Assembly (NCBI RefSeq): GCF_037042905.1
Contig: NC_087252.1
Location: forward strand, 3,846,001-3,910,000
DNA: 64,000 nucleotides
Source: Lytechinus pictus
Lineage: Eukaryota
Direction: 5' to 3'
Shown here: one piece after another, positions 3,205 to 51,389 of the stretch
How the letters are laid out: each line of letters opens with the position of its first letter
Numbering within the stretch: position 1 is the stretch's first letter
Translations under genes and position numbers: made by a program
Notes under the pieces: generated by a model
Told to the model about the DNA's origin: nothing
Databases searched by the model: none
Seen by the model: only the letters and a program-made list of their open reading frames with translations

Positions 3205-3649
3205 TTAAACATTAACCAAAATCTAATATTTCTGGGAACAAAAGAAAATGTATCAAATTTAACTCGCTATGACAATTAAAATACATGTATAATGGATCAG
3301 CAAAGATTTTTCTTGTTTGTAAAAGATAGTACAAAGTGTTATCAAAACAAAGTGCAAAATAGTACGAAAAAGTAGAACAACTCCAGTTCTTAATTATCCC
3401 TTTCAGAGAATTCATGAATGTTTGATAGGTTTTCCCACGTGGTTATCTCCAGAAGGGGTGGTGAAAACAAAATCACTTTTTATTTTGTACACTTTTTTAT
3501 TTTACTCTATTAGAACTCATTTTTTTGCAGTGTGAAAATCAAGATGAAAATAACCTAGTTTGGTTTAAAGAAGTGTCCTCATGAAAATCTTGTATAAAAG
3601 ATATTCTCTAAACTTTGCCTTTTCTCTCATGATGTCTTTTATTTACAGC

Positions 3650-6938: not shown

Positions 6939-7429
6939 CTGATGGCATAAAAAATGAAAAAATTAAGGGTTTTAATTCATTCTTTTTGTAGTGTGATCTT
7001 AAACATTAAACAAAATCTAATATTACTGGGAACAAAAGAAAATGTATCATATTAAACTGGCTATGAGAATTAAAATATATGTATATAAAGATTGTTTTTG
7101 TGAGAGATAGCACCAAGTGTTATTAAAACAAAGTGTAAAATAGTAAGAAAATTAGAACAATTCCAGTTCTAAATTATCACTTTCAGAGGGAGAATTCATG
7201 AATGTTTGATAGGTTTTTCCTAGGGAGTTATCTCCGGAAGGGGTGGTGAAAAAAATATCACTTTTTCTTTTTTCACCTTTTCTATTTTACTCTATTAGAA
7301 CTCATTTTTTTTGCAGTGTAAAAATCAAGATGAAAATAACCTAGTGTGGTTTAAAGAAAAGTGTCCTCATGAAAATCTTGTAAAATATTTTAACTGTGTG
7401 AAAATTTGCTTTTTCTCTCATGATGTCCC

Positions 7430-9296: not shown

Positions 9297-10579
9297 TTAA
9301 CAGTGTGAACAATCATAAGGTTTTGCCCCAGTATGGGTTGCAAGATGGATATTTAGATCAGTTTTCTGTGTGAACTTCTTTTCACAATGTGAACATTCAT
9401 GACGTCTTTCCCTTGTATGTGTTAGGAGATGTTTGTTGAGAGCATTCTTCTGTGCGTATTTCTTTTCACAGTTTTCGCATTCAAAAGGTTTTTTGCCTGT
9501 ATGTGCTCGCAGATGATTTCTTAGAGTACTCATTCGTGAAAATTTCTTTTCGCAGTATGAACATTCATATGGCTTTTCACCAGTATGGGTTGAAAGATGG
9601 ATATTTAGATCCCTTTTTTGTGAAAATTTCTTTTCGCAGTATGAACATTCATATGGCTTTTCACCAGTATGGGTTGAAAGATGGATATTTAGATCCCTTT
9701 TTTGTGAAAATTTCTTTTCACAATATGAACATTCATAAGGTTTTTCTCCTGTGTGTGTCAGGAGATGAGTGTTGAGAGTACTCCTATATGGAAATTTCTT
9801 TCCACAATGTGAACATTCATAAGGTGCTTTTCCTGTGTGCGTTAACAGATGAGTTTTTAGAGTACTCCTTTGTGAAAATTTCTTTTCACAATATGAACAT
9901 TCATAAGGTTTTTCTCCTGTATGTGTTAGGAGATGTTTGCTGAGAGTACTCCTATGTGTGAATTTCTTTTTACAGTTTTCGCATTCAAAAGGTTTTTCGC
10001 CTGTGTGTGTTAGCAGATGATCATTGAGAGTACTCATTCGTGAAAATTTCTTTTCACAATATGAACATTCATAAGGTTTTTCTCCTGTGTGTATCAGGAG
10101 ATGAGTGTTGAGAGTACTCCTATATGGAAATTTCTTTCCACAATGTGAACACTCATGAGGTGCTTCTCCTGTGTGTGTTAACAGATGAGTTTTTTTAGTA
10201 CTCCTTTGTGGAAATTTCTTTTCACAACGTGAACGTTCATAACGTTTTTCTCCTTTGTGTGTACGGAGGTGAATTTTTAAAGAACTTATCATTGAAAATC
10301 TCTTTTTACAAAATGAACAGTCAAATAGTTGATCTCCTTTATGAGTCAAAAGATGGCATACAAGATCTCTCTTCTGTGTAAATCCTTTCTCACAGAAGTC
10401 ACATCCATGCAGTTTTCCTCCTGCGTGTAAATTGGTTTGTGGAAGGGAATATGTGCTTTCACTGGATCTTGGAGATTGATGTAGTCTTTCTCTAGGACGT
10501 ACTTCAAATTGAGATTCACCTGCACCACTTATCAAAGTAGATTGTCCTTCCAATTGATGTCCATTGTCACAGATATCTC
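9297..10579 (-). CDS. C2H2 zinc-finger block C (13 finger repeats plus one cut by a stop); probable alternative terminal exon
   Basis: ORF 9297-10589; acceptor cccttaattttctgatattttatgccatcag|GAGATATC, phase 1; internal 84-bp finger duplication. Confidence 0.85.
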
Positions 10580-10709
10580 CTGATGGCATAAAATATCAGA
10601 AAATTAAGGGTTTTAATTTATTCTTTCTGTAGTGTGATCTGAAACATGAACCAAAGTCTAATATTACTCTAATATTACTGGGAACAAAAGAAAATGCATC
10701 AAATTAATT

Positions 10710-11513
10710 TTTTTTTACAATGTGAACATTCATTAGGTTTTTCTCCTGTGTGTGTTAGCATATGGCTGTGGAGAGTATTCCTAAGTGCGAATTTCTTTTC
10801 CCCAATGTGAACATTCATAAGGTTTTTCTCCAATGTGTGTTAGCAGATGGTTATTGAGAGTATTCCTAAGCACAAATTTCTTTTCACCATATTTCTTTTT
10901 CATCATTGTGGGTTGATAGATACTTATTTAGATTGCTTTTTTGTGAAAATTTCTTTTCACGTGAACATTCATTAAGGTTTTACTCATGTGTCAGAATATA
11001 AAAAATTCTTTTGACAATATGAGCATACATAGATTTTTCACCAGTATGTAATAGGAAATGTCTGTGTAAGCTACTCCTCTGTGTGAATTTCTTTTCAGTT
11101 TTCACATTCAAAAGGTTTTTTGCCTGTATTTGTTGGTAGATGATCATTGAGAGTACTCATTCGTGAAAATTTCATTCCACAATGTGAACATTCATAAGGT
11201 TTTTCTCCTGTCTTTGTTAGCATATGATCATTGAGAGTACTCCTTTGTGAAAATTTCTTTTCACAATGTGAACATTCATAAGGTTTTCCTCCTGTAGAAG
11301 ATGTCTATTAAAGTTACTCTTATCTGAAAATTTATTTTCTCAATGTGAACATTCATAAGGCTTTTCTTCTGTGTGTGTTACCAGATGAGTGTAAAGAGTA
11401 CTCCTTTGTGAAAATTCCTTTTCACAATGTGAACATTCATAAGGTTTTTCTTCTCTGTGTGGTAGCATGTGATCATTAAGAGTAGTCCTTTGTGAAAATT
11501 TCTTTTCACAATG
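10710..11513 (-). pseudogene. Decayed fingers downstream of block D
   Basis: Finger repeats continue past the TGA at 11514-11516 and accumulate deletions. Confidence 0.7.
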
Positions 11514-12619
11514 TCAACATTCATAAGGTTTTCCTCCTGTGTGTGTCATAAGATGTCTATTAAAGTTACTCTTATCTGAAAATTTCTTTTCGCAACATGA
11601 ACATTCATAAGGTTTTTCTCTTATATGTGTAAGAAGATGTCTATTTAAGTTAAACTTATGTGAAAATTTATTTTCGCAGTATGAACATTCATAAGGTTTT
11701 TCACCAGTATGGGTTGAAAGATGGATATTTAGATCCCTTTTTTGTGAAAATTTCTTTTCACAATAAGAACATGCATGACGTCTTTCCCTTGTATGTGTGA
11801 GGAGATGTTTGTTGAGAGCACTCTTCTGTGCGTATTTCTTTTCACAGATTTCGCATTCAAAAGGTTTTTCGCCTGTATGTGCTCGCAGATGATTTCTTAG
11901 AGTACTCATTCGTGAAAATTTCTTTTCACAATATGAACATTCATAAGGTTTTTCTCCTGTGTGTGTTAGGATATGTTTCTTGAGAGTACTCCTATGTGTG
12001 AATTTCTTTTTACAGTTTTCGCATTCAAAAGGTTTTTCGCCTGTGTGTGTTAGCAGATGATCATTGAGAGTACTCATTCGTGAAAATTTCTTTTCACAAT
12101 ATGAACATTCATAAGGTTTTTCTCCTGTGTGTTTTAGGAGATGAGTGTTGAGAGTACTCCTATATGGAAATTTCTTTCCACAATGTGAACATTCATAAGT
12201 CGCTTCTCCTGTGTGTGTTAACAGATGAGTTTTTTTAGTACTCCTTTGTGAAAATTTCTTTTCACAACGTAAACGTTCATAACGTTTTTCTCCTTTGTGT
12301 GTTCGGAGGTGAATTTCTAAAGAACTTATCATTGAAAATCTCTTTTTACAAAATGAACAGTCAAATTGTTTATTTCCGTTATGAGTCAAAAGATGGCATT
12401 CAAGATCTCTCTTCCGTGAAAATCCTCTCTCACAGAAGTCACATCCATGCAGTTTTCCTCCTGTGTGTAAATTGGTTTGTGGAATGGAATATGTGCTTTC
12501 ACTGGATTTTGGAGATTGATGTAGTCTTTCTCTAGGATGTACTTCAAATTGAGATTCACCTGCACCACTTATTAAAGTAGATTGTCCTTCCAATTGATGT
12601 CCATTGTCACAGATATCTC
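11514..12619 (-). CDS. C2H2 zinc-finger block D (11 finger repeats); probable alternative terminal exon
   Basis: ORF 11514-12629; acceptor cccttaattttctcatattttatgccatcag|GAGATATC. Ends at TGT TGA CAT where other fingers read TGT TCA CAT. Confidence 0.85.
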
Positions 12620-13099
12620 CTGATGGCATAAAATATGAGAAAATTAAGGGTTTTAATTTATTCTTTTTGTAGTGCGATCTTAAACATTAATCAAAATCTA
12701 TACTATTGGGAATAAAATAAAATGTATCAAATTAAACTTGCTATTAGAATTAAAATACATGTATAATTGTTCAGCAAAGATTTTTTTTGTTTTTGTGAAA
12801 GATAGCACCAAGTGTTATTAAAACAAAGAGTAAAATAGTAAGAAAATTAGAACAATTACAGTTGTAAATTATCACTTTCAGAGGGAGAATTCATAAATGT
12901 TTGATAGGTTTTTCCCAGGCGGTTATCTCCAGAAGGGGTGGTGAAAAAAATTCACTTTTTTCGCCTTTTATATTTTACTCTATTAGAACTCTTTTTTTTT
13001 TTTGCAGTGTGAAAATCAAGATTAAAATAACCTAGTGTGGTTTAAAGAAAAGTGTCTACCGGTATGTGAAAATTTGCTTTTTCTCTCATGATGTCCCTG

Positions 13100-16000
13100 A
13101 AGATGTCTTTTTTACAGCATGGACATTCATTACCGTTTTCTCCCTTATTTGATAACAATTCATTTTTAGATGACTGTACTGAGAAAATACAATTAGAACA
13201 TTCATAAAGATTTTTCCATGTTTGTTGAGAAATTAGATTTGAGAAGGTAAATTGTCTAACACCAGTTCGTCTATTTCCATTTTGTTTCAAAACCAGTTGG
13301 TTCAATACCTATTTTTTATTCATTTCACCCCAAAACATTCCAATTAGACCATATGGTATAAGGACTAAATGGCTATCAGACCAACTGGTTTTTAGACAAT
13401 TGGTGAGAGGACGAAATGACAGTAAGACCATGTACAATGGACAATCTGATGGAATCCAAATAATATTAAACGAGTTAGTGTTTGAATGAATTGGGATTAC
13501 CGATAGACCAAATGGAAATAAACCTTTGAGATGGCTCTTGTGAAAATTTCTTTTTACTGTATGAATATTTTTTTTTTTTTTTTTTTTACCCTAGTGTGTT
13601 GACAGATGAACATCCAGATCACTTTTCCATGAATTTTTTCATTCACAATGAGATCATTCATGAGATTTAACTCCTATGTGTTAGAAGATGTCTATTTAAG
13701 TTACACTAATGTGAAAATTTATTTTCAGTGTGAACATCCATAAGGTTTTTCCCCAGTATGGGTTGAAAGATGGATATTCAGATCTTTTCTCTGTGAAAAT
13801 TTCTTTCACAATGTGGACGTTTATAAGCCTTTTCTCCTGTGTGTGTTAGGATATGACTCCACAGGGTACTCTTCTGTGCAAATCTCTTTTCACAATGTGA
13901 ATATTCATAAGGTTTTTCTCCTGTGTGTGTTAACAGTTGATTATTGACAGACTTCCTATGTACAAACTTCTTTTCACAATCTGAAAATTCATAGTGTTTC
14001 TCCTTTGTGTACTACATGTCGCAGATGAGTGTTGAGAGTACTCTCATGTGGACATTTCTTTTAACAATGTGAACATTAATAAGGTTTTTCTCCTTTGTGT
14101 GAACAGACAATTTTTTTAGAATATTCCTCTGTGCAAATTTCTTTATACAAAGTACACTGTAACAATTCACAAGGTTTTTCTCCTGTGTGTGTTACAAAAT
14201 GAAATTTAAGCCGTCCTTTCTTTGAAAATTTCTTTTCAGAGTGTGAACAAAAGGTTTTTTAACAGTATGGGCTGAAAGATGGATATTCAGATTGCTTTTC
14301 AGTGATTTTTTTTCACAATGCGAATATTCATAAGGTTTTTCTCTTATGTGTGTGTAAATACAGATGAGTGTTGAGAGTATTACTACATGCAAATTTCTTT
14401 TGACAGTATTTGCATTCATAAGGCTTTCTCCTGTGTGTGTAAGCAGATGATTTGTTAGAGTATTTCTTTGTGCAAATTTCTTTTTACAATACATGTATGA
14501 ACAATCATAAGGTTTTTCACAAGTGTGTGTAAGCAGATAAGTGTTGAGAGTACTCCTTTGAACAAATTTCTTTCTTACAAGTCATAAGTCTTTTCTCCTG
14601 TGTGTTACAAAATAAGATTTGAGCTGACCTTTGAATATTTCTTGTCAGTATTCACATTCACAAGGTGTGAATTCTCTTGTGTGTGCTTGGAGATAATAAT
14701 TTTAATAACCTATCAATGAAAATCTCTTTTTACAGAATTAACAGTCAAATTGTTTATCTCCTTTGTGAGTCAAAAGATGGCATTCAAGATCTCTCTTCTG
14801 TGAAAATCCTTTCTCACAGTAGTCACATCCGTGCAGTGCGTTGTAAGATGACCATCCAGACTATTTTTACTCATGAATATTCATGAGATTTTACTCCTGT
14901 GTGTGTTTGATGTATTTTTAAGTTACACTTTAGTGAAATTTTTTCACAATCTGAACATTCATAAGGTTTTTCTCCAATGTGTGTTAGCAGATGGTGATTG
15001 AGAGTATTATTAAGTGCAAATTTCAGTGTGGGTTGACGAGATGCTTATTCAGATTGCTTTTGTGTGAAAATTTATTTTCAAGTGAACATTCATAAGGTTT
15101 TTCTCCAATGTGTGTTAGCAGATGGTGATTGAGAGTATTCTTAAGTGCAAATTTCAGTGTGTCAGAAGATGTCTATCTAAGTTACTCTTATATGAAAATT
15201 TATTTTCACAATATGAGCATTCATAAGGTCTTTCACCAGTATGTAATAGGAAATGTCTGTGTTAGTTACTCTTCTGTGTGAATTTCTTTTCACAGTTTTC
15301 ACATTCAAAAGGTTTTTCTCCTGTATGTGTGAGTAGATGATCATTGAGAGTACTCATTCGTGAACATTTCTTTTCACAATATGAACATTCATGAGGTCTT
15401 TCTCCTGTGTGTGTTAGGAGATGTTTGTTGAGAGTACTCCTATGTGTGAAACTGTGAATTTCTTTTCACAGTTTTCACAGTCAAAAGATTTTTTGCCTGT
15501 ATGTGTTAGCAGATGAGTGTTCACAATATGAGCATTCATAAGGTCTTTCACCAGTATGTAATAGGAAATGTCTGTGTAAGTTACTCTTCTGTGAAAATTT
15601 CTTTTTACAATGTGAACATTCATAAGGTTTTCCTCCTGTGTGTGTCAGAAGATTTCTATCAAGGTTACTCATATCTGAAAATTTCTTTTCGCAATATGAA
15701 CATTCATAAGGTTTTTCTCTTATGTGTGTTAGAAGATGTCTATTTAATTTACACATATATGTGAAAATTTCTTTTCACAGTATGAACATTCATAGGGCTT
15801 TTCACCAGTATGGTTTGAAAGATGGACATTTAGATCGGTTTTCTGTGCGAATTTCTTTTTACAGACTTCACATTCAAAAGGTTCTTTGCCTGTATGTGTT
15901 AGCAGATAATTTCTTAGAATACTCATTCGTGAAAATTTTGTTTCACAATATGAACATTCATAAGGTTTTTCTCCTCTGTGTGTTAGGAGATGGTTGTTGA

Positions 16001-16388
16001 GAGAACTCCTTTGTGAAAATTTCTTTTCACAAAGTGAACATTCATAAGGTTTTTCTCCTCTGTGTTCGGAGGTGAATTTTTAAAGAACTTATCATTGAAA
16101 ATCTCTTTTTACAAAATGAACAGTCAAATTGTTTATCTCCTTTATGAGTCAAAAGATGGCATTCAAGATCTCTCTTCTGTGAAAATCCTTTCTCACAGGA
16201 GTCACATCCATGCAGTTTTCCTCCTGCGTGTAAATTGGTTTGTGGAATGGAATATATGCTTTCACTGGATCTTGGAGATTGATATAGTCTTTCTCTTTCT
16301 CTACGATGTACTTCATATTTAGATTCACGTGCACCACTTATCAAAGTAGATTGTCCTTCCAATTGATGTCCACTGTCACAGATATCTC
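13100..16388 (-). pseudogene. Zinc-finger block E, frameshifted at the end of finger 2, plus decayed tail
   Basis: Same GDICDSGHQLEGQ start after acceptor catgtttcatgtcattag|GAG at 16388; 2-nt loss in the His/linker codons near 16060 (LRTQRRKTL*); further fragments 15744-15926, 15481-15756, 14192-14494. Confidence 0.75.
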
Positions 16389-17735
16389 CTAATGACATGA
16401 AACATGATTTAATTCTTTAGTCATTCACTCGTATTATCTCTTTATATTATGACCCATCACTCGCATTATCTCTTATTGTGACCCCCGTCCAAAAAAAAAA
16501 GAAAAAGGAAAAAGTCAAATAACACAGAAAGTTTAAATAGACCCCTCAAAAAGGTTCTGCAGCTCAAGTTTGAAAGGTAATGAATTTAAGTGTTCCATCG
16601 TATATGAATACGGTACCATTGGATGATAATTCCTCTTCTTAATAATGCATTATTTGCATATTGTAATGTTTTCATGGAATGCACAGAATTTATAAATATG
16701 CAGCAATGTAAAAATGACATGTTGCAAAATTCATTGTTTCTGATAACGAATTTCCAATTTCCACGGTCGTGTACACTGTATACAAAGGTTAGTAATCGCT
16801 ATATGAAACGTCCTATCAAGATCATTGTTACATGTGCATTTTGCTCAGTATGCAAACTACATGTACATGTAGGAACCAATCAGAAATGCTGTTTTAAAAT
16901 TAGCGATCGATCACTAACCTTTGACACAGTTTGATTGACGCTGATCCACTTCACGGAAGTCCACACATGGTGTACTCTCGTTTGCATTTAATGGATTGAA
17001 TGTGTTTCAAATCACGTTTGAACCATGAAATTTAAAAAGGTTTTAAGATGGTGAACTAAAAAAAAAAATCATTGGTTTAATTGTTGTTTACATTTTAAGT
17101 TTTCACTTCAAGCAAACACAAAATCACACAATATTTCAATCCTTTACAATTTTTATCTGAAACACTTGATCATGCACACAAACAGTGGAAACACATCTCT
17201 TCAACAACACAAACCATTCCTTTCAACTTTTAAATGACCCAAACATTCATTCTCACCTGCTTCCCAAGGGCAAAATTCAAGGAAATGGAGACTCTGGTTT
17301 AAAGAAAACAAAGCATTTTACAACATTTTCACTTCTGACTTTGCCCTAAAATGGCAAATCATCGAAAAGAGGAATAATCCAGCTTTCAAATGATACCACT
17401 TCCACATTTTATAATTCAGTTGCAAAAAAGATATCGTCCCTCACATTCGAGCTGCAGAATTTTTATGGGTTTATATAGTTCAGTGGAGAATTCTCATTTC
17501 ATTGTAATGTCTTTGATATCACATGATTGTTGAAATGAAAGGGGAAAAAAGAGAAGAAAATTTGGATTGCTCTATTGACTTTATTAAGGAGTTTAACATG
17601 AAGCTAAATCAATACTTGTTCATGAAAATTCTAAGGAATTAGATAAATTTAAGTTGGAGGAAACTGCAGATAGTCTTCAAACTGATTTTTATTAAGTTTT
17701 TAATCTACATGTACACTCAACGAAAATGTACACTC

Positions 17736-18684
17736 ACGCAAATCTACGTATCCATGGCATCCGACCAGAAGACATATGCTGTTAATCTACTGAGTGACTG
17801 CCTCAAGGACATCAAGGTCTGGTCAGCGAAGAACAGACTCCGTCTCAACGAAGCCAAATCAGAACTGGTACATCTTTCTTCGCAATTTAGAGCTACGGAG
17901 CCTCTGCCAGACTTCAATATGGGAGAGGGCATACTTAAGATGTCTGACTCTGTCAAAGACCTTGGTGTCACTTTAGACAAGCACCTTACCCTCCAGCCAC
18001 ATATCAGGAACATCTGCAAATCAGCATCATGGGGTTTATTTAGGATTGGTAAGGTCAGGCGACTACTCGACCAAGCCTCTACTGAAAAACTCATTCATGC
18101 CTTCGTCTCATCCCATCTAGACTATTGCAACTCCCTCTTTGCCGGCCTCCCAATTTCTTCCATCTCTCCCCTCCAGCGAATCCTCAACACTGCAGCGAGA
18201 ATGGTAACCTTGAGCAAGAAACACGAACACATCACCCCTATTCTCCGATCACTTCATTGGCTTCCGGTTCACTCTCGCATAACGTTCAAAATTCTACTCA
18301 TTGTATACAAAATTACCCATAATATGTCACCCAAATATCTCCAAGACCTTATTTCCCTTCGTTCTTCCTCTTCTGTCAGATCCTTACGTTCATCATATTC
18401 CAATAATTTAATTCATGGCCCTCGCACTAAGACCCGATATGGTGATCGTGCATTTTCTGTAATTGCTCCCACCCTCTGGAATAAACTCCCAATTCATATC
18501 CAAAATGCTCCCTCCGTAGAAATCTTCAAATCGTCACTTAAAGCTCACCTTTTCTCATAACTTAACTTTTTTTTTTTTTTTTTTTTTTACCGATTGACTG
18601 TATACTATTATAATCTGCCAACCTGTGCGCTTTGAAACACCAGTATAAAGCGCCCTACAAATGTTATTATTATTATTATTATTA
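17736..18684 (+). mobile_element. 5'-truncated L2/CR1-group LINE (RT C-terminal region, 3' UTR, (TTA)n tail)
   Basis: Open frame begins at TQIY (just after the expected YADD motif) and has NRLRLNEAKSE, DLGVTLD, SHLDYCNSL, HITPILRSLHWLP and YGDRAFS..APTLWNKLP; tail gcgccctacaaatg(tta)n. Confidence 0.9.
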
Positions 18685-37330: not shown

Positions 37331-37535
37331 TTTTATTTGGGGGGGGGGGGTAACAAAATGCTAGAAAAATAAAATTGCGCCTTTTTTAATGTTTTCTTTA
37401 TTTTTTGGGACCAGTAGATTTTAGGTTCGGACCAGTAAAAATTTGAAAAACTGGGTATCTACTGGTCCGACATGAATAGGTTGGACCAGTAGAAAAAAAT
37501 GGGTTAGTGTGGAGCCCTGGTTTAAGGCAAGCTAA

Positions 37536-38001
37536 GGGCGCACACCACTAATAGGATCCGGCAATTTCGGGAATCCCCTTTAGACCCGTACCTAAAATGA
37601 CGTAATGGTTGGAAAAATATTCATATAAAATCAACGGTGCATATCTCAGCAATTTTTTTCATATGGGCATAGAGAGGGATTACTACTGGATCTGTTCAGT
37701 CCCATGGGAGAGCAGTAATTTGTCAATGCTAGATTTTATGGGACCTTAATTAGTTGCCCAAGAAACCCTGTGAGCACTGTGACTGCAACCAAGTTTGCAC
37801 GTAGTCTTGGTTTGAGCCCCTGTAGCGCGAAAAAATATTGAAAAACACCCTTTCATATCTTTAGCATTTGAAGGATATTGGATACACTACCAAATGATAA
37901 AGGTGTGGATGATGTCATTTCTAAGACTTATTTTTGGCGATTTTTTCAAATCTCATTTTTAACACATGAGTCTATGGGGAAATAGTTAGTGGTGTGTGCC
38001 C
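37536..38001 (+). repeat. Left long direct repeat (LDR, 466 bp)
   Basis: Starts GGGCGCACACCACTAA and ends TTAGTGGTGTGTGCCC; one substitution seen by eye against the right copy. Confidence 0.95.
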
Positions 38002-38536
38002 TCAACAGGTATTGTGCAGTAAACAGGGCTAGTTGGATGTAATTGCTGCTGGAAGGGAAACTGATTAAAAAGAAGGTGTGCAAACACTCTGAATAAATGC
38101 CTGCCCTGTTGTTCTATCATGAAAACCCAATTGGCAGCTAACTAGGCACCATTTTCTTCAAAATACTCAAACAAATATAAAAATGCCACTTTTGCCATTG
38201 CTTTGACTTTGTATGTAATTTTGGCACTCTCCTACATTGGGGTCTTAAATGCAAGACTAGCACGCGCGTAGTAATCAGAAATACGTGTAGATCGTAGACC
38301 AAAACATAAACAGGCCAGCACCGACACCGGCACCTAGTTTATTGTTAGTAATTCTCTTTCAACATCTTCCTAAGATAGGATTTTCAGTCAAGTTAAAAGG
38401 AATAACATGGCAAGGTAAAATTTGAAGTTTTTATATGGAATTTTATAGCAATGAATGTCTGGTTACTGAAATTCATTACAGAGGGCAAAACTTACTATTA
38501 TTAATTAATGTTATTTGGCTGTAGGCCTACACAATC

Positions 38537-38920
38537 ATGGCTGATCCACATCAGGAATGGTGTTCCAAATATTCAAAACTATTGGACAGTAAGACAGAAA
38601 AGAGGGGAAATGAGCCGTCGGCATGCTGGCCATTTAAAGGGCGAACAAAAAATGGGTATGGCTTAGTGGATGTGAACATCCCAGCCCCAGGCAGCCGTAA
38701 GACCACTAGGCATGCCCATCGGCTTGTGCTGATGACAAGGGTGGCGATGACTTGGGAGGTTTCGTCTGAGCTCCATGCCTCTCACCTTTGCGGTAATGGC
38801 ATCTGTGTGAGGCCAAGCCATTTAGTGTTTGAGAGCCATGAAGAGAACAAACAGCGTCAAATTTGCCATAATTTGAAAACTTGCCAATCCCACGAGCCCC
38901 CTTGCATCATATCAGCCTGA
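38537..38920 (+). CDS. His-Me finger (I-PpoI-like zinc-binding loop) nuclease of the KolobokP-type element
   Basis: CWPFKG...GYG...AHRL...SHLCGNGICVRPSHL..ESHEENKQRQIC...C.SHEPPC matches the His-Cys box/His-Me endonuclease pattern; intact 127-aa ORF. Confidence 0.9.
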   Translation: MADPHQEWCSKYSKLLDSKTEKRGNEPSACWPFKGRTKNGYGLVDVNIPAPGSRKTTRHAHRLVLMTRVAMTWEVSSELHASHLCGNGICVRPSHLVFESHEENKQRQICHNLKTCQSHEPPCIISA

Positions 38921-39040
38921 CTTAAGTATCACTGTGACTAACTGAGACTACAGTGAGTTTATTAACTAATTTTAGGGAAATTAGGCATAGAGGTCTGGGC
39001 CTAGACTACATAATTATTAAACAAATAAAGTGATCCAAAG

Positions 39041-41066
39041 TCAAGATCTAGTTTCCCCTTTATCGCAGATCTTTCTGTCATAGGAGTGATCACTTTGAAT
39101 AGATATGTGAGTGTTTTCTAATTGTCCCTTCACATAAGAGTGGAAATTGCTGTCATCTTTCCACCTTTTTACCTTTTGATACAGTTTGTATTTATACTCC
39201 CTATGTGTAGCTTTGGACTTAATTGCTGTCATCTTTTTACTTCTCTTTCTCCAGTAGTCCCTTCTCTGCTGCAGATGCAAGAGCTTGTGTCGAAGTCTTG
39301 ATCCCCCTTTCACTGGAACCTGGGCAGCTAAGGCCTTGTCAAGGATCGATGCGGGGCCCCCGTTGGTAAGTTGTATTGCAGAATGCTCTCTGTTTGCTTG
39401 ATTTCTGACATAGGTAGTGGAATGCTTTGGGTAGGTTACTCTGAAAGCAGAATTCATTGACTCTGCCTTTTGTGTTGACAAATTAAACCGTGTTCTCCTG
39501 AGGGTTTGAGTGGACAGTCTTTGACGTATTGTTCCCAAAATTTGTTGCTGATCTCTCATATTAAGCGTTATCCGCTGTCTAAACTCCAGAGGTAAAAAGG
39601 GAAATTTGAACCCTCCGTTACATGCTAGGCTCTGGTTCCAGCACAGTTCATGATTTCCAGTATAACACAAAATCATTGCCTCCCCACATCTTTGCAACTG
39701 TTCTTTGTATACTAAAATGTCCCCTGATTGATTATGTGCTGAATTTAATTCAGCTTGAACCCTGTAAGCAATGTCGCCTGCCATTGCTCTCTGCTGCTTG
39801 TCTCTCAGTCTTGAAGTTTTACCTGGGAAAGTATTTTTGCTTAGAGTAAGTCTTTCCAATTTTTTACACAGAGACCGCTTCAGGTGATTGACACAAAGGT
39901 ATGATGTTGGATCTACACCAGCTGCGCTCTTCATGACTTCTTGGACTCCCCTGTGAAAGTGTCCATCACTATCGCTAACAACACCTTTGACAAGTAGCTG
40001 CGTTTCATCTCCAGTAAGTAATTTTTGTGCACATTTTTGTCCACCAAGCATTTCGTCCCCTATGTTATCACTCATCTTTATTGTGGCTGTACACTTAGGA
40101 TGGTTAGGGCAGGCAGGTTCTTTTCCTTGACCAACTAATCTCTGGCCTACTCTACAAAGTTTGTTTGTTGAATTGTAAGTTACAATGTACTTCTCCGGGG
40201 TCACATTTTCTGTCACAACATCACGAGCTTGAGTCGCTGGTGCAAATGGTGTTCTCCCCTTTGCATGGCTGAGAGGTATGTTATATTGTCTGTCTAATAG
40301 GTGTATTTCTGTCCATCCCTCTGTACTCCAAAATGTCTTTCACCTTCCTGCGCTTTTCTGCCATATCCAATTCATTGGCAGCGGCCAAGATATCACCACA
40401 TTTGTTAGCTGTCTTTTGGAAACCGCTAAGTGATCCAGTTGGAATACTCATTGCTGTTAGAATCCTGCTTGCAGCAGCATTTGCAATACTGCTTTGGTAT
40501 AGCCCCACCTGTAGAGCCATGTTTGGTACAGCAGTTTTTCTCCCTGATTCTGTTTTATCAATCTCTCTGAAAAACTTTAGAGCGGTTGATTCAAATTTAC
40601 AAGTCCTGCACCTGAATACGACAGTAACTGCAATTCCTCTTATCTTTTCTTTTTCTTCAGGAATCATCCAGTCCATGTTTGAACACCCAGGGCTACAATG
40701 TGAATGCTGTTGGCAAGCTTCATTGATGGCCATGGTGAGCTTCTCTACATCAACAATCTGATGACCGACAGCTGAACCATCAGTGGATGTCAACATTTTT
40801 GCCAGTGGTACAGAGTCTTCTGATGTCTTTGGCCTGAGAATCATGGTTGTAGAAGAGCGACTGACAGGTTGATCATGCTTGTGAAGAAAGTTGCCACGCT
40901 CATCACGGGACATTGTGCGGTCCAAGTCCTCTCTTGTTAGACGTACATATTTGGTCTTGAGAATACTGTTGGAATTACCAGCTTCCCACTTCAGCCCCTT
41001 ATTCCATGCTCTATGGCCAGGTACAAAAAGGTTCTTTCGCTTGTCAGATAGTTTCTTGGGGCCCAT
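39041..41066 (-). pseudogene. Kolobok-family DDE transposase, frameshifted near 40295
   Basis: MGPKK start at 41066; FVPGHRAWNKG motif; H..C/CxxC zinc cluster. After the shift the frame reads DRQYNIPLSHAKGRTPFAPATQA and joins ORF 39041-40216 with VVSDSD, CVNH and TQKAESMN (putative D, D, CxxH, E). Confidence 0.85.
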
Positions 41067-41974
41067 TGTGACTGCTTTTGGTTTGGCAGGGAAAGTTTTC
41101 ACTTGTATTTATACACTTTTCTACTGTGCATCCTCCCCCCCCCCCTCCTCCCCACAATAGGGAGAAGAAAAAAAAATCACAATTATGTCATGATTTCCTC
41201 CCTATTTTACAGGGAAATCATTTTCTTTTTAACCCAGAAGGGCAGCAGTGACGTATTTTGTAGCCAGAATTCCATGAGTACTTCCATGTCCTTCACCTAG
41301 TTTACATTACACAATTGTTATGGTGACAGATTCATATTCCACACTGGCCAGCAATAAATGTCCCTTTAGTATACTACTGAATCAATACTCTGGATCATGA
41401 TAATAATCACAATGTATTCAGCTATCATTCTCTGTCATTTGGCTCTTCTCAATAACCCCCTCCCCCTCTCTCTCTCTCTCTCTCTCCCCCCCCCCCCTCT
41501 CTCCCTTTCCTCCTTCCATTTTTCATCCCTTTCTGTCAACATGTCACTCATTTTCTCTGCCTTCTGTAAAACTATGAATGTTATTACACACAAGGCACTT
41601 AGATTTGCTTTTTCTTTTGTTTTTATTGTTTTTTCTCTTGAATTGTGATATTAATTTCAAGTGATAATGACTTGGAAAAATGAATCAAGTACTATTAAAA
41701 CACATTTACAACATTTCAAAGGTGATGATTATCATTAAATTTCAATTCATGAACATGGATTGAGCTTAAACATTACAAAATTTTCTTATAGGTGCATTGT
41801 TTCAACATTGTGTATTCTGTCTGTATTATAACCCTGGAGAGACAATGTTTATTCCCTGATCAGAAGAGAACGGGGTCTCCAAAAAAAAAAAAAAATTAAC
41901 ATTATGCATATGATACCCTAAGGTTGTGCCAAAAAAAAAAATTCCCAAGTTCAGTAAGAATCGCACCCTCTGAA

Positions 41975-42320
41975 GGGCGCACACCACTAATAGGATCCGG
42001 CAATTTCGGGAATCCCCTTTAGACCCGTACCTAAAATGACGTAATGGTTGGAAAAATATTCATATAAAAGCAACGGTGCATATCTCAGCAATTTTTTTCA
42101 TATGGGCATAGAGAGGGATTACTACTGGATCTGTTCAGTCCCATGGGAGAGCAGTAATTTGTCAATGCTAGATTTTATGGGACCTTAATTAGTTGCCCAA
42201 GAAACCCTGTGAGCACTGTGACTGCAACCAAGTTTGCACGTAGTCTTGGTTTGAGCCCCTGTAGCGCGAAAAAATATTGAAAAACACCCTTTCATATCTT
42301 TAGCATTTGAAGGATATTGG
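41975..42320 (+). repeat. Right LDR, 5' part (346 bp)
   Basis: Copy of 37536-37881, interrupted after ATATTGG. Confidence 0.95.
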
Positions 42321-44919
42321 TAGGGATCCCAAAACGAAAATCTAATTTTTTAAATCTATGTTTAAAAGCATTGAAAAGTACCTCACCTGAATCAGCATAT
42401 TCAAAAACCCCAAGTGAATGACTTTTAGTGTTCCAAAGACATCTAAATATCTGTTAATCTGAGGCTAAAGTTGGTCCGAATTGTGACAGATTTGTGTACA
42501 AATTTAATTTTGAAATTTCGTCGACACGTATTCACAGAGCTCGGCACTGAACGAGGGATTGTGGGCGTGTCCTTTCTCGCCTCGGCGTATTGTTACGTAA
42601 ATACACAACTCGAACGAAAGTGCGTTCACCGTCCCAGTTAGTCTCGGATCCGAGCTTATCCAAATAAACAATGATTAAATAACAACAAAAAATAGAAAGA
42701 AGAGAAAAGAGAAAATAAATGGCTCAAATGCAGTCGTTTGGTGACAGATAGTATGCTGTGACCTCTTGCTGATATAAGGATTAGATATGACAAGTTTTAT
42801 GCCATGATAACTAAAGCATGGGGGTGGGGGCACTCTGACTTTCAAAATAATTAATTCTTTAAACATCTATATCTAGGCAAGGGAGGGTCCAGGATTTTCC
42901 AAAGGGGGGGGGGCACTATTAGCGGCGGCAGTCAAAAAATTTAGGGGGGCACCAAAATCTTTGACAAAAAAAGGTTATCAAAGGGGGGGGGGACCGAAAA
43001 AAAAAATTAGCAAAAAAAGGGTAACAACGTCCCCCCATAGGCAGCGGGGGGGGGTCGTGTCCCCCCTAAATTTGAGGTGGGGGGACAATCGCCCCCCCCC
43101 TAATTTTTTTGTTGATAACCTTTTTTTTTTGCTTGACAATTTTTTTTCCTGCGTGCCCCCTAAATTCCAGTGGACCCCCCCCCCTAAAAATTTCATGTGG
43201 TCTCCCCTAAAATTTGGGTTGATAAACTTTTTTTTTGGTGGGGGGCCTATGGAGGGCATATTTTCCCGATGCAAATTTGATAAGCATTACAAAATGTTTT
43301 TACAAAAAATTCAAAGTCATTTCGTCCCTAAAAATTTACAAGCAAAAAAATTGGGCCTATATATATATATATATATATCCTCACTTTCAAGGGGGCATGC
43401 TTGGGTAAAAAGGGCATGCTAATGTTACAAATTACAATTTTGGCTCTCGATAATTATGCCCCATGGATCCACCAGTAATCTAAGGGGAATTTTTTGTTTT
43501 TAGTTTTGATATGGCTACCTTCTCGGAGGGCGTCCTCGCCGCGGTAGCTGGATAGTGCTGCAAAAGAGTAGGCCTTATACATCTTTTGCAGCATTAACTG
43601 ACACTCCGAGACTTATAATTTAACCTTATACTTAAAAATGAATAATACAAAATAAAACATAACACTTGTTTTTAGAGAAAGTTGATGTCAAAATATATTC
43701 AGTCTGGGGCATGAAGACTTGGAACTCTGCCCCATATCATTGTACTTGCCTCGCTCGATTTGTATCATAATTTTTTTTTAAATGTTTCCACAATAAAATA
43801 TAGATCTAAGTACAATGGCCAGAAATAATAGTACGAATAAACTAGCAGAATTTGTATCATATCACCCATATTATTGAACGCCAATAAAGGCAGTTTCTAA
43901 AACTTGTTTGCTTTATCCCACTTTTCCACTAAGATCTATCCCTTTTGCGTGTCATATAAAAGCAATTTTGTGCGCAGATCTAGCGTAACGGTGGGACCAC
44001 ATGCAGTCATTAATAGGTCTCTTTAATTTTTTTTCAACATATGATGTCTCATGCTTTCTTTAAAATTAATAAATTAGAATCCTTGTATATGGCCCTGAGA
44101 AGTGGGGTGCTCGGGTTGTTACCCCCAAGATTTTTTTTTTTTTTTGCTGGTGGTGCGTTTTTTGTACACGTACGGCAGGGGGAGTGGAGCGAAGTTGGGG
44201 GAACAGAAAATAAGGGGCACTTTTTAGTGCTTTTAGAAGTGGGGCATTGAGCCCTCGCCTATCCCCTGGATCGCCGCCCCTGCACCAGAGGCAGCACCCC
44301 CTGGAAATCAGTTTAGTATGATATTCGACCAAAATCAACTTATCTTTAGAGAGATAATCTCTTTCTTTTGGCTTTTTTTTCAAAGCCAGCAACCCCTCTT
44401 TAAAAGATTTCTTTTCGGGCAATCCTCATGATTATCTCAAAAATTTGAACATTTTTCCTTCAAAGCATCTTTATAGTGACGGATGGTATAATCATATTAC
44501 TAGCAGTGGCGGTATGGCCAACCCCCCCCCCTCCCAGTTTTTTTTTTTTCAAGTAGTTTAAAACAGGAAGAAGAATTACATAGATTTTTGTACCGAATTA
44601 TTTTCATTAATGATTTTATTGGTAAAAATACCCCCCCCAAAAAAAAAAATTAAAAAAAAAAATCAATTTTTCATGTTTAACCCCACTTTCAAAACTATTC
44701 CTCGGTTCCTGGAAGAATGGAGAGATGGATGGAAGGAGAGAAATAAATAGGATGAAGGGTGGATCCAGCTTTCGCCAAGGGGGGGGGGGTTTCTTTCACC
44801 CATATTTTTCCCCAATCGGCCGCGCGAAGATGATTTATGTTTGTTTCTTTGAATAAAATGTCACTTCTTAGCTTTTGTCTTATAAATCAACATAAATATA
44901 TAATATCATAACTCTTTTT

Positions 44920-47450
44920 TATATAATGCGAGCGCAAAGCGCGAGCTAATTTATCATTAAAAAATATGTGTTTTTTCCCCAAAGTTTGAAATTTCTGGGC
45001 AATGTTTATCATGAAAAAGATGTGTATGCAACTAAATAATTACTAAGAACGCGAAGCGCGAGCAGAATTGAAATAATAGGCACTTTTTGTAACTTAAACA
45101 GGATAGGTATATAACTTAGCAATTGATGCGAAGCGCGAGCACAAAATTGGAAGATTTAGACCTAAAAACAAGACATGTCTATTCATGTATTTTAAATCAT
45201 GCATGGAAAGGATATCAAATTTCCGATCTTGGTTAAAGCGCGAGCATAAGATTTTTGTTTACGTTTTCAACTGATCAAAAAGGTACCTGTTAAGGACTGC
45301 TTATTTCACTTAGCCATGGGGAGACGTTACATATTTCAACAATAAAATCATGCAAGCGCGAGCCGATTTTTTTTGGGGGACACTTCTACATAAAGAATGG
45401 AAAATTTAAATCAATTGTAACCATGAACAGGATCGTCGCTATAAAACAATTAATGCGAGCGCGAAGAGCGAGCGGAAAAAAAAATCGAGATTTAGACCTA
45501 AAAATGGGACACTCTATTCATGTTTTATATATCATGAAAAGGATGAGATAAGAAAGAAGTAGTAGTGCATGGGCGGTATCGCCAATAGGGGGGGGGGGGG
45601 GTGCCAATTCGTCTACGGCAAACTCGTCCACTCACTACATGGTCTATTTTCATTAAGTCTAATGCCAATCTGTCCATCAACATTTCGTCTAACAGCCATT
45701 GGTCCATTAACCATTTGGTCCAATCATCACTTCTTCTAATAACCATCTCGTCTATGACCATTTAGTCACATAACCGGTTGGTCTAATAGCCATTTTATTT
45801 TCATAACATTTATAGTCCAATTAGATGAAATGGTATATGGACCAAATGGCTTTTGGGTCCACTGGTCATTAGACGAAATGGCATTATACTAAATGAAAAA
45901 AAAAGACTATGTGGTGAGTTGACGAACTGATGGACCAAACGATAGTAGACGAGTTGGCAATTAAACAAATTAGAAATAAACCGGGGAAGGGGCCGAAAAA
46001 TATTTGCTCTGCTCAAAGTTAATAGGGGTAGTCCTAACAGTCACTTCTTTATTCTCATTAAACAGCATACACAAAACACAATATATAATAATCTCATAGC
46101 CCCTATAGTGCGAGTGAGAAGCGCGAGCTAAAATATCTTTGAAATTTCATGTTTTTTATCCTCAAAATTGAACATTCTGGGCAATGTTTGTGAACTTGAA
46201 CAATATGCGTATTTTAATAAAATTTCTGCGAGCGCGAAGGAGGAGCAAAAAAAGAAAGAAAAGGGAGAAATATACATTCTGGTCTGATCGAAAAGGGACT
46301 TGCTAATGGCGGTTTACAGTTCAATCAAAATAATGCGAGCGCAAAGCGAGCTAAAAATGTTTGAAATTCTGACCATAAAAATGGACATTCCAAGCACTTT
46401 GTGTATGAACAGAACAGAATAGGGCCTAAGTAATATTTTAGGTACAAAGTGGGAGCACGAAGCGTGAGCGGATAAAAATTGAGATATATAGACCTAAAAA
46501 AGGAACACTATTTTATATTCATGTTTTCTAAATCGTGAAAAGGATGGGTACTTGGTTACACCTTTACTTGTATAATGCAAGCGCGAGAAGAAAATTTTTG
46601 ATATTCTAATCTGAAGCGAGATAATTTAAGCATGCTGTTTTCAATACAGGATAAGCAGCCCGTCTCAATAAACATGCATGTTCTAGAATTTGCGCATTCT
46701 TAATACACTTTTTATCACGGAAATCAATAATGCGAGCGCGAAGCGCGAACTGAAAATATTGGATATTCCGATGTGAAAAGGTCAAATTAAGCACTGCACT
46801 GTGTAGGAAAATAATCATGAAGTGGACATGGATTGCTCTTAAAAATGAGGCGAATGCAAAGCATGTCGAGCTGAAGTTATTCTGGACCGTAGGACCGGGA
46901 CATTCTAAGGACATTTTTTCATCATTATGAATGACTGTCTTCCGATTCCTCTTCCCAAGCGCAAAAAGAAACATGTCGATCTTCCATTCTGAAAAAAGTG
47001 ACAACTTAATTACGGTATTAGGAATTAATGAAATGTTATCAATATCTTATTTACTAATCTAATAAGCCTAATGAGAGCGCTAAATTTGTTGATTTTAAAG
47101 TGTTAACCTCGGAGATTATAAGCACTTTTGTCATTATGAATAGGATGCATTAATTAACGTACTTAACGAAATTAATGCGAACGGCAATTGCGAGCAAATT
47201 TTTAATTTAATAAACTTATTATTAACTAAAAAAACTGTAATGAAAAGGGGAATGTGAGTACTTTGATTTATATATATTAGGTATACATGACTCACCAATT
47301 CTAGCACGTGCGCGCAATATAGCTGATAAGATATGACAATCAGACCTTAAAAGTTATATTTTGAGAAATTTATGGAATAGGGCCTACACGAAGAGGAGGT
47401 ACTCCACAAATCAAATAATGCTATAGGGCACAGCGTGAGCTAAAAATGTT
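44920..47450 (+). repeat. Diverged array of GCGAGCGCGAAGCGCGAGC-like motifs in AT-rich spacers
   Basis: About 15 variants, many 100-125 bp apart; interrupted by a short-repeat MITE at ~45570-45960. Confidence 0.75.
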
Positions 47451-49069
47451 GATACTCGGATCATAAAACAAATATTTTACAAAGCACTTTTTTATTGATT
47501 CGTTATACCTCAGTCACATTTTTTCTACGGCGGGCGTACGGCGAGTCGAAAACAGTCGTTTTAACATTTTTTTTGTACCAGCTTAATATAGGTGGTTTGA
47601 ATAAAAATGAATAAAACGGCTGTTTTCGACTCTCCGTACGGCCGCCGTAGAGCAAATGTGACCGAGGTATTAATAAAAAAGAATAATGAAATATCCTAGC
47701 TGACCGTACAGTATATGTTTTGTATTTTGACTGCAAAGCTTGAAATGTCAAGCTCATATATATCAGCCTATTGAGCAATATGTATAGCTCATCGAAAATG
47801 AGCAATGTGATGTTTTTTTTTTTAATCATCAAAGTCTCCCCTCCCTAGTTTTATTCACTTTTCTCCCTCCCTTCCCCCCTCTTCCTTTTCCCCTCTCTTT
47901 TCCTTCTGTTTCTTCTTCCTTCTCCATTTTTTTGTCTTTAATCCGCCAACAGAGGGGGGGGGGGGTGACCGGCCCCTCTGGATCCTTCTATGGTAGCGAT
48001 GGTGAAAGCATTTGAATTATTCACCTCACAGTGTTAAACTGGGAAAATAGGAAATGGCTAAATTTTGAAAATCATCAATGTGGAGCCCTATTCAAGTTTA
48101 GTTTAGTTTAATCTATATACACCTTCGACAGGGGCTGATCCAGGATTTTCCAAAGTGGGGCATTCAATACAAAAAATAAACAAGACCTAGTATACTAGAA
48201 ATTTTGCTAGGAAAAAAATCATTCCATACACAAAATTCCTGGGAAAAGTTGATAAATAAGTCCTCATCTGAGAATGAACGACAAAATCCACTAACAAATA
48301 TTTGATATATTACGGGAGGGGACACCTTTATCTTTCTCCCCTTTCCTTATTCCTCATCCATTCCATAGGCAGATCCAATTATGGGCGGCGGCACCCCCTC
48401 TTACTGGCGGTGCGAAAATTAAAAAGAAAAGTTAGATCGTGCCGTTTTGTTAAAGAAAAAAAAATCGGCTTTTAACGGCGCCGATCGGGGAAAAAAATTG
48501 TTGTCCCCCCCCCCCCATTGGAAAAAAAATTGATCTACACCGGGTACTTGTCTGTCGTACCACCCAGCATTGGCGGCGGAAGCCAAGGGGGGGGGGTCTA
48601 CCTGAAATTTTGTGATGGACACAGGTAAAAAATAATTTGACAAGCAAAAAAAAAAAAAAGGTTATCAACCTCAATTTTAGGGGGGGGCCGTCCCCCCCCC
48701 CCACCGCAAATTTAGGGGGGACCTGTCCCCCCACTTCCGCCGCCTATGCCTCCCAGTAAATGAAACAACAAAATCAACAAATCACCGTTGCACTAGTACT
48801 AAACATTTTGCGAGTCTTTATTTTTTTAATATTTTTGTTTATAATGGTATTCATTAATTATATAGTGGAGGTTCGCATCCCGAGAATGTGAAATGAAAAA
48901 AAAATGCACTGAACAGGAAACACTAAATGTTCTTTTCAATTCCAAATTTACTCAGTCATTCAAATAAAAAAATAAGCATCATTTTTTGATACCTTAACTT
49001 GTGCATCACGAGTACAATGAAGCCGACAATTCTTTGCTTTGTTTTGGATTAATCTTTGTAATATATTAT

Positions 49070-49540
49070 TAATTCACTTCAAATAAAATTCATACATAAA
49101 CAGGAAAATATCACAGAAAATAATGTAACAAATTAATTGCAGTTGTATAAAACATCATAGAAAATAACATGACAGATAAATTTTATGTCGATAGGCACAC
49201 TGTTCATTCGATCATAAAACAATCGCGCTGTTTCACTCCTTGTACACGCACAACTCTATCAGTATTGTTTCATCTTCATCTGTCCTCAATGGCAAGGACA
49301 CCAGCATAATTCATTCACTTCAAATAAAATTCATACAGAAAAATATCAAAGAAAATAAAATAAAAAATCAACTTGCAGTTGCATAAAACATGATAGAAAA
49401 AACATGGCAGATGAATTTTATCTCGACAGGCATACTGTTTCATTCGATCATGAAACGATCGCGCTTTTCCACTCATTGGACACGCGCGACTATATCAGAA
49501 TTGTTTCATCTGTCCTCAATGCGGCAAACACCAGAAGTGA
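49070..49540 (+). repeat. Diverged ~240-bp tandem duplication
   Basis: ATTCACTTCAAATAAAATTCATAC...CATCTGTCCTCAATG occurs twice (~49072 and ~49313). Confidence 0.8.
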
Positions 49541-50368
49541 TGATAAGTGCACAAGTTGCAGTTGCACGTGCGCGGAGAATGAATTAAATTCGGCGGCTGA
49601 GTAAAGTCTAGCGAGAGAGACAAGTCACCAACGAACTTCACGATAGACCACGCCTACTTGCCGAGGTAACCAACGTTGATTGACGGCCCATTTAGTTTTT
49701 TGAGTAGTATGAAAAAGTACAGGCATGTATAAACATCATTTTAGTTTGAATTCATTAAAAAAACACATTTTTCTTCTAATATAGATGTTTCAAACATATT
49801 CCATGTGGAAAACATAATTTTTTAAACATTTATTGCTATATTTTTATCATGAAAAAAGGATTTCTTACGCAACAACAAGTATGATATGTGTGGGCAAGAG
49901 AACTACCGTTTTAGCCATAAAGCATATTTTTTATGATTTTATTGTGAGCCTACTCAAAGGATTTTTGTTTATTTTTATGAATTTCCAGACCAAGTTCAAC
50001 AGCGCCGTCTCGAGCTTGCAATAACGCATGCGATCGCACGCATTTTTCTCCATAGCGAATACACGCGACGAAACTCTGTGGATTTCTCGTGGATTTAACC
50101 TCCAAACGTCACTTTCGATACCACATGAAGGTAAGACACTTCATCCCACATAAGTCAATTTAAATGTAGAAAAGACAGGGCCTAATTTTTTTCACTAAGA
50201 TGAACTAATTTGCTGAGGAAAAGCATTTCAATGCTCATTTTTGCCGTCGAGAACAGACGATGGTGGCAATGCACACTGTTTACGCACTTGCAATTGAATT
50301 GGCTTTTCATTTGCCCATAGCAATTTTGCTCAGTGGATCGGCCGACCTTTTGGTAACTCTAATATTGG

Positions 50369-50488
50369 ATACACTACCAAATGATAAAGGTGTGGATGAT
50401 GTCATTTCTAAGACTTATTTTTGGCGATTTTTTCAAATCTCATTTTTAACACATGAGTCTATGGGGAAATAGTTAGTGGTGTGTGCCC
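50369..50488 (+). repeat. Right LDR, 3' part (120 bp)
   Basis: Copy of 37882-38001, followed by the CTAA TSD. Confidence 0.95.
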
Positions 50489-50965
50489 CTAACAGTTAGA
50501 ATTTTTACACCGCCTTTCACAATGCAATGACACAAATAGACATGTGTGGGACTGGGATTAAAAATTGCGGGGAGTTATTTGACCGCCGATCATGGCGATA
50601 TTTTAAAATTTCTTCAAAACAAACTAACTAGGCATGACATTTTAAAGAATTCCTTCCCCAGTTTTCTATGGAAATGGATCAAGAATAAAAGTCAATGCAA
50701 TCCAAATATTTTTCACTTACTTTTTAGAGAAAGGTGACCGTGGTGGCCGTGAATCAGACCCGGGAATCAGACAGACCCAGTTGTGTGTCCGGTGCGGTGT
50801 ATGTAGCGGCGGATATCGTTCTAAATGGCCGGTGTAGCGGCGGATACCGTATCCGCAGGCAGATATTGTTCTAAATGGCCGATATTGTTTTTAATCGGAA
50901 CCATATCCGCCGGGTTTGACGCGGCTTGATGTTTGCAGATTTGGTTCCTCGGAGGATTTGGTTCT

Positions 50966-51389
50966 TACGGAGCCTTTAAAGTGCCATCGACTTGACGACT
51001 TGGCGATATGTACTTTATCTTGCCATGTCGACAATAACCTTATTATGTCGACATATACGTTATCTCGCCAATTAGACTTATAAAAGTTATATGTCGACAT
51101 GGCAAGATATGTTAGCTCGCCAATTCAACTTATAAAACATTATATGTCGACATGGCAAGATATGAAGTGTCCAAGGCCCGGCGAGAGTCCAATTATCTCG
51201 CCAAGTTAACATATAACTTGTTATATGTCGACTTGGCAAGATCAAATATCTCGCCAAGTCAACATATATCCTTTAATAAGTCGACTTGACGTATCTCGCC
51301 GTGTCGACATATAACTTTTTATAAGTCGACTTGGCGAGATAACGTATCTCGCCAAGTCGTCAAGTCGATGGCACTTTAAAGGCTCCGTA
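50966..51389. mobile_element. IS3EU-like MITE (424 bp)
   Basis: ~41-bp perfect TIR TACGGAGCCTTTAAAGTGCCATCGACTTGACGACTTGGCGA; TAC...GTA termini; 6-bp TSD GGTTCT at 50960-50965 and 51390-51395; internal GTCGAC/TCGCCAA repeats. Confidence 0.8.

Follow-up and report, generated by a model that had tools for sequence, protein, structure and literature searches.

The window analysed here is a stretch of 64,000 nucleotides of Lytechinus pictus DNA (NC_087252.1, positions 3,846,001 to 3,910,000; G000:C8:3846001-3910000), and further copies of its mobile element were sought in the 812-Mb assembly. At 37532..50492 the window contains a DNA transposon in which two long direct repeats (LDRs), each with terminal inverted repeats (TIRs) of its own, enclose an internal region (INT) with a transposase and a nuclease gene. 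By all structural features that could be tested here, the element is a KolobokP. The locus itself is an ordinary, dead, non-autonomous copy, whose transposase is frameshifted and whose right LDR is split. It was found that the paired LDRs are reset per element in this family and in two sister families, and that many insertion junctions carry a tetramer which would derive from the flank of the donor. The features of the element were as follows.

37532..37535, no strand: left copy of the target duplication, CTAA (sequence comparison)
37536..38001, minus strand: intact LDR of 466 bp, the 3' LDR in transposase direction (repeat comparison)
37536-37551 and 37986-38001: TIRs of the left LDR, 16 bp, imperfect
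38002..41974, minus strand: internal region of 3,973 bp, starting with TCAA and ending with TGAA on the plus strand
38537..38920, plus strand: His-Me finger (His-Cys box) nuclease, open reading frame (ORF) of 127 aa (Pfam PF05551 zf-His_Me_endon, E 1.2e-15)
39041..41066, minus strand: DDD/E transposase gene, frameshifted (PF20700 in two pieces, E 5e-22 and 5e-16)
41975..42320, minus strand: right LDR, part 1 (LDR positions 1-346), with a single substitution at position 96
42314-42320 and 50362-50368: 7-bp duplication ATATTGG around the nested insertion
42321..50361, no strand: nested, unrelated, non-coding DNA transposon of 8,041 bp with TAG...CTA termini
50369..50488, minus strand: right LDR, part 2 (LDR positions 347-466), matching the left LDR exactly
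50489..50492, no strand: right copy of the target duplication, CTAA

The initial annotation had described 466-bp LDRs with one visible mismatch and a 16-bp TIR each, an outer CTAA duplication and inner LDR ends abutting TCAA and TGAA, and all of this was borne out. The mismatch is the substitution at LDR position 96, the TIRs match as inverted repeats at 15 of 16 nt and have GG..CC termini, and the tetramers lie at 37532-37535 and 50489-50492 (CTAA), 38002-38005 (TCAA) and 41971-41974 (TGAA). Two features of this copy had been left out, namely the insertion in the right LDR and an 11-bp deletion in the transposase. The 346-bp LDR repeat within the window is 99.7% alike, which together with the linked copies elsewhere is far beyond chance, and the left LDR shows 100% identity with each LDR of the C16 copy. 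The internal region of older copies reads TGAA...TGAA, compared with TCAA...TGAA in the window.

The convergent ORFs reported earlier were confirmed by Pfam matches for both, with the nuclease on the plus strand at 38537-38920 and the transposase on the minus strand at 41066-39041. They are the only two Pfam-positive genes in the element, and no reverse transcriptase was found in it. The 11-bp deletion near 40295 frameshifts the transposase just before the first catalytic D. An intron was considered as the source of the split gene and rejected, because the 11 bases are present in all four other copies aligned, two of which (C16 and C6) have a single open frame of 678 aa. As the window copy is frameshifted, the transposase motifs were read on the intact C16 copy: IEID, C-x-C-x2-H-x2-C, SDSDG, CxxH, a C/H cluster and TQKAES were kept across nine aligned proteins, agreed by eye with the alignment in PMC9587614, and were shared by 13 database homologues of 52-72% identity (8 of the 13 aligned). 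The best sequence match of the nuclease in PDB was I-PpoI (E 0.007), and it has counterparts of the I-PpoI residues S97, H98, H110, E114 and N119 that are named in PMC9587614. Among the copies examined, none was a fully intact window-family monomer: the C16 copy (L031) has an open transposase and a nuclease with a premature stop, and in the C6 copy (L038) both genes are open and one end is rearranged.

KolobokP elements have been described as LTDR-INT-LTDR structures (LTDR, long terminal direct repeat), each LTDR having its own TIR of 11-18 bp and RR..YY termini, with a target duplication of 3-5 bp and no strong target preference found (PMC9587614). Their transposase is reported in the same paper to have a CCHC finger after the first D, a C/DxxH signature and, ahead of E, another finger. 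The layout, LDR length, termini, 4-bp duplication, transposase signature and I-PpoI-like nuclease of the window element all fit this description, and CTAA rather than TTAA as the duplication is unremarkable given the lack of a strong target preference. The assignment to KolobokP made from the sequence of the window was thereby upheld. The proposed linkage of LDR and internal region holds in six more copies that have an LDR at each end, and solo LDRs occur frequently (27 with both ends read in the window family). Because five motifs from the window LDR termini had no match in the supplements of PMC9587614, the family probably lies outside the 228 families of that paper; the initial annotation had suggested that it may be uncatalogued. 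Two sister families, here called families 2 and 3, were found by protein search of the genome, each about 50% identical to the window transposase. The transposase and nuclease of family 2 resembled by eye those of KolobokP-1_LyPi in PMC9587614; judged by the transposase, which is only 50% identical, the window family is separate from family 2. A candidate homing site common to the LDRs of the three families was looked for, and nothing was evident except the termini and a subterminal motif.

The distances between LDRs demonstrated that the two repeats of one element are reset together. In the seven elements of the window family with both LDRs, the pairs differed by 0, 1, 1, 2, 2, 3 and 7 substitutions, while LDRs of different elements differed by up to 29. 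The mean distance was 0.50% within and 2.73% between elements, and 2 of the 5,040 possible pairings of the seven pairs were as close. In the tree, four LDR pairs formed clades of their own, and the other three grouped inside their subfamily. The same was observed in the sister families, with 0.57% within versus 5.8% between elements in family 2 (own partner nearest in 7 of 8) and 0.66% versus 4.4% in family 3 (9 of 9). If monomers were simply cut and pasted, left and right LDRs would diverge as two lineages; this was not seen, as same-side and cross-side distances were equal in the window family and no separate left and right lineages existed. The question of how the LDRs stay identical, raised in the initial annotation, is a real one, and the text of PMC9587614 has no 'homogen' or 'divergence' passage.

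Further evidence came from the insertion junctions. The sample of the window family consisted of 34 insertions with both ends read, comprising 7 LDR-INT-LDR units and 27 solo LDRs, with a triplicated segment counted once. Loci with a missing or unresolved end were omitted (L049, L121, L122, L198, L201, L204, L099/100, L101 and L103, as well as C6, C2 and four C17 loci). The flanking 4-mers, varied in sequence, matched in 16 of the 34 insertions, of which 14 were perfect duplications other than TGAA and 2 were TGAA/TGAA. Thirteen insertions had the internal tetramer on one side only (5 left, 8 right), and 5 had other mismatches. The presence of the internal tetramer in 13 of 18 mismatches has a P of 3e-5 if a chance rate as generous as 0.25 is assumed, and a far lower one at the background frequency of TGAA, which is 0.0076. 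At these one-sided junctions, resemblance to internal sequence ended, as judged by eye, about four bases out. As a side observation, the tetramer other than TGAA was TCCA in three one-sided cases out of 13 (L117, L120 and L124), and many targets had the form T..A; sites able to pair in part with a carried overhang may be preferred as targets. At L199 (~1490-1540), a window-family LDR and the end of a family-2 LDR are one base apart.

Two empty sites showed that the internal tetramer replaces one target copy and is not added to it. At the C15 site, an inverted neighbouring copy has ATAA alone, and the filled site reads TGAA[element]ATAA. The empty C16 site was found in run X4, in a contig of a related organism with about 90% likeness; it has a single tetramer close to the target copy, without the TCAA that the filled site has on the other side. 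TCAA is the internal start only of the young subfamily to which the C16 copy belongs. Both C15 and C16 are full LDR-INT-LDR units with an internal tetramer outside, so their donors would have had internal region beyond the LDR. Altogether, an outer internal tetramer was present in 2 of the 7 window-family monomers, and one more was TGAA/TGAA.

Family 2 provided a test of sidedness, because its internal region has TATA at the start and TACA at the end. From 455 pattern matches the first 100 were listed and 72 loci were fetched, leaving out an array and five clustered matches. An unresolved end was found in 19 loci; of the 53 insertions with both ends read, 42 were perfect (two of them sharing one site) and 11 were mismatched. 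The mismatches comprised TATA on the right (4), the variant TGTA on the right (1), TACA on the left (2), single substitutions (2) and others (2). The internal tetramer thus occurred in 7 of 11 mismatches, 7 of 7 on its side of origin and none on the wrong side. Together with C16, it was on its own side in 8 of 8 informative cases. No internal region was found adjoining the seven family-2 cases. In the family-2 solo L266, the flanks are contiguous halves of a common repeat. For family 3, the outcome was predicted before its junctions were read. Its 30 loci gave 20 distinct insertions with both ends, 17 of which were perfect (2 of them TATA/TATA) and 3 mismatched; TATA stood on one side in 2 of the 3.

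Two simpler sources of the tetramers were considered and rejected. A target preference for TGAA or TATA is not in line with the perfect duplications of family 2, of which 0 of 42 are TATA or TACA, nor with the empty sites, which lack the tetramer. Leftover internal region adjacent to the insertions was rejected because no internal-region match lies beside the cases.

A family-2 (LDR-INT)n-LDR array at C8:21257288-21299717 is flanked by a TGCG duplication and has an assembly gap inside; its 4,461-bp units are 99.9% identical, macrosatellite-like, with open transposase and nuclease frames. The same unit fills every stretch sampled from seven unplaced and possibly overlapping contigs of 29-82 kb (C109, C157, C174, C200, C214, C219 and C273), the 82-kb contig of which would hold about 18 units. 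In family 3, an LDR-(INT)n-LDR insertion at C5:35918878-35970417 (L211-L215, L332 and L333) is flanked by TAAG as its duplication; it contains 8 open transposase frames, in 8 LDR-less units with both genes open, and unrelated DNA interrupts the insertion near 35.934 Mb. INT-INT joints were also seen in the window family, and LDR-bearing arrays only in a sister family. Exactly one tetramer was present at internal-internal joints in 3 of 3 clean cases (C6, C2 and C109), and two LDR-LDR joints had one tetramer (L295 and L325). Multimers and INT-INT joints with a single tetramer are already reported in PMC9587614, so those found here are not new in kind. At one LDR-LDR joint of C157 (L227, ~5360-5366), TATA precedes TGTA, which when reverse-complemented reads TACA, the normal left flank. 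This single joint is a possible hairpin footprint, as from a hairpin opened on the other side.

From the junctions and pair distances, we consider it rather likely that the family moves by cut-and-paste with four donor-flank bases on each excised end, and that monomers come from multimers. The flank carry-over is the part that the junction sequences support well. The transposase would nick the transferred strand at the TIR and leave the other strand 4 nt longer, either through a piggyBac-like hairpin or through a staggered cut, and the donor would reseal with one tetramer. At insertion, the carried tetramer would lie opposite the 4-nt target gap; repair would mostly yield a perfect duplication, and sometimes fix the donor tetramer on its own side. 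Any left TIR could be paired with any right TIR, so that the released piece could be a monomer, a solo LDR or a unit of greater length. Twin LDRs would arise when the sources of monomers are concatemers or head-to-tail (LDR-INT)n arrays whose LDRs all go back to one template. One rule, a 4-nt flank overhang on the non-transferred strand, would explain the junction tetramers, their replication in the sister families and the single-tetramer joints. A monomer with an internal tetramer outside its LDR would have come from a multimer or concatemer, and LDRs sharing a template would explain the likeness of the pairs. The piggyBac transposase is known to produce a 4-nt overhang through transposon-end hairpins, with seamless donor repair (PMC7351741). 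More generally, we suggest tentatively that Kolobok transposases, members of the hAT/MuDR clan, might excise in this piggyBac-like manner via a hairpin and reseal seamlessly with no fixed target, tandem arrays serving as a reservoir for twin-ended monomers and solo LDRs; this is possible rather than probable.

Several points weigh against these proposals. The step from multimer donor to monomer rests on two cases, C15 and C16. An outer internal tetramer was seen in 0 of 9 family-2 and 0 of 9 family-3 monomers or arrays, and an (LDR-INT)n array of the window family was not found in searches that scored top candidates only. The junction samples were top matches and not a census. There were only two clean empty sites, one of them from an organism about 90% alike and with a substitution in the tetramer, and no empty site of two window-family solos was found in two genome searches, which did not reach the junctions. 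One of the seven family-2 cases relies on the variant TGTA, and the window copy, having a perfect duplication, is uninformative on its own donor. Moreover, the piggyBac-like route is not the default for the clan, since the related Mutator-like transposase Muta1 forms hairpins on the flank side and not on the transposon side (PMC5499845).

Some of these points are what would be expected if monomers transposed as monomers and the His-Me nuclease afterwards induced gene conversion or unequal crossover that equalised their LDRs in place (model c of PMC9587614), in which case carry-over may hold and arrays would be by-products. The absence of outer internal tetramers from the monomers or arrays of families 2 and 3 (0/18) and of an LDR-bearing array from the copies seen of the window family speak for it, as do five private changes common to the two LDRs of the decayed C7 copy, although these would be equally expected if the donor lineage had been lost. 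The C15 and C16 monomers, however, need a donor with internal region outside the LDR, and equalisation in place is regarded as unlikely. The foreign tetramer could also stem from a copy-out-paste-in route via a circular intermediate with a short donor-flank spacer between the two TIRs, as in bacterial IS3 and IS256 elements and as suggested in PMC9587614. Excision footprints in that paper lose 1-5 bp on one side, and the LDR-tetramer-LDR joints described above would fit such a circle. But a spacer could land on either side, whereas the 8 of 8 own-side cases have a chance of 1 in 256 if the sides are equal; we find this route quite improbable. Tn7, in which TnsA assists TnsB, is a model for an overhang made by two enzymes. 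Here the transferred strand would be cut by the DDD/E transposase, and its complement by the His-Me nuclease at a point 4 nt within the flank. Every array unit that was read has an open nuclease frame, I-PpoI makes staggered cuts of 4 bases, and accessory nucleases are also found in other Kolobok lineages (PMC9587614). However, the flank tetramers vary freely while homing nucleases recognise specific sequences, a nuclease seems to be missing from some KolobokP families (PMC9587614), and the 3' overhangs of I-PpoI have the wrong polarity for this role. Such a division of labour is considered very improbable, and donor-flank carry-over from multimers is retained as the preferred reading.

The 8-kb stretch in the right LDR was also characterised. 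It was considered as plain genomic DNA between two half-LDRs, and this was rejected because the stretch forms a linked element of high copy number, flanked by a 7-bp duplication of its own. Each end had at least 40 matches at 95-100% in the genome (40 candidates scored per end). All 20 fetched copies (L075-L094) share the TAG...CTA termini, with spans of 5.2-9.9 kb, and 18 of the 20 have a 7-bp duplication with a consensus of roughly nTAnTAn. No ORF longer than 181 aa is present in the window copy, and the fetched copies have no long ORF except inside later insertions. The element is a young, high-copy, non-autonomous DNA transposon, with an interior patchwork of older repeats without an ORF. 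Duplications of 7 bp are made by Galileo of the P superfamily. They are also made by some hAT families (PMC4455052).

Elsewhere in the window, a tandem cluster of C2H2 zinc-finger-like ORFs of 379-523 aa with TGEKPY linkers, read in translations, lies at ~140-16400 on the minus strand. A frame of 305 aa at 17643-18560 on the plus strand presumably resembles the C-terminal part of a non-LTR (long terminal repeat) retrotransposon reverse-transcriptase protein. At 50966-51389 there is an element like a miniature inverted-repeat transposable element, with 44-bp inverted arms that are 98% alike and internal subrepeats.

The element itself is one more KolobokP family, and its value lies in the junctions. 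The KolobokP pathway was called unknown in PMC9587614, and according to a 2026 review (PMC13565253) the nuclease model still awaits experiment. Neither LDR-pair homogenisation nor donor-tetramer carry-over is reported in the main text of PMC9587614, where 'homogen' and 'divergence' are absent, and no earlier report of LDR-pair resetting or tetramer carry-over was found in the literature searched, which did not include subscription papers, Repbase Reports or figure images. The window family and its sisters offer a testable account of movement and of the upkeep of twin ends. The junction data give a specific prediction on strand cutting, natural intact transposase genes are available in C16 (G000:C16:27426839-27428872) and C6 as well as in the family-2 and family-3 arrays, and LDR pairs could serve as an LTR-like clock for dating insertions. 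If the account is true, this would be a seamless-excision transposase without a TTAA requirement, of interest for mechanism and genome engineering.

Compared with known systems, the window family is closest to the KolobokP elements of Kojima and Bao (2022, PMC9587614), with which it shares LTDRs of about 450-480 bp, short TIRs, GG..CC termini, a 4-bp duplication, a DDD/E transposase with a convergent His-Me nuclease, solo LTDRs and multimers; in contrast to the present sample, that paper counted only insertions with recognisable duplications. KolobokP-1_LyPi in its supplement has a similar 466/467-bp LTDR, 16-bp TIR and 4-bp target site duplication, and shares the subterminal motif TTCCCCATAGAC with the window LDR, but its TIR is different. 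Classical Kolobok (Kol0) makes a TTAA-specific duplication, whereas TTAA was found in 0 of the 34 window-family insertions. Bacterial composite transposons and LTR retrotransposons likewise have two direct repeats, mobile or recombining, that enclose a gene-bearing core, and LTR retrotransposons also leave solo repeats and have repeat pairs that track the element; unlike in these systems, the window LDRs encode nothing and the element has no reverse transcriptase. The piggyBac element resembles the route suggested for the window family in its 4-bp duplication, flank overhang on the transposon ends and seamless repair (PMC7351741). It belongs to another superfamily, has a strict TTAA target and has no long direct repeats or nuclease, so that the likeness is a mechanistic one, with no sequence relationship claimed.

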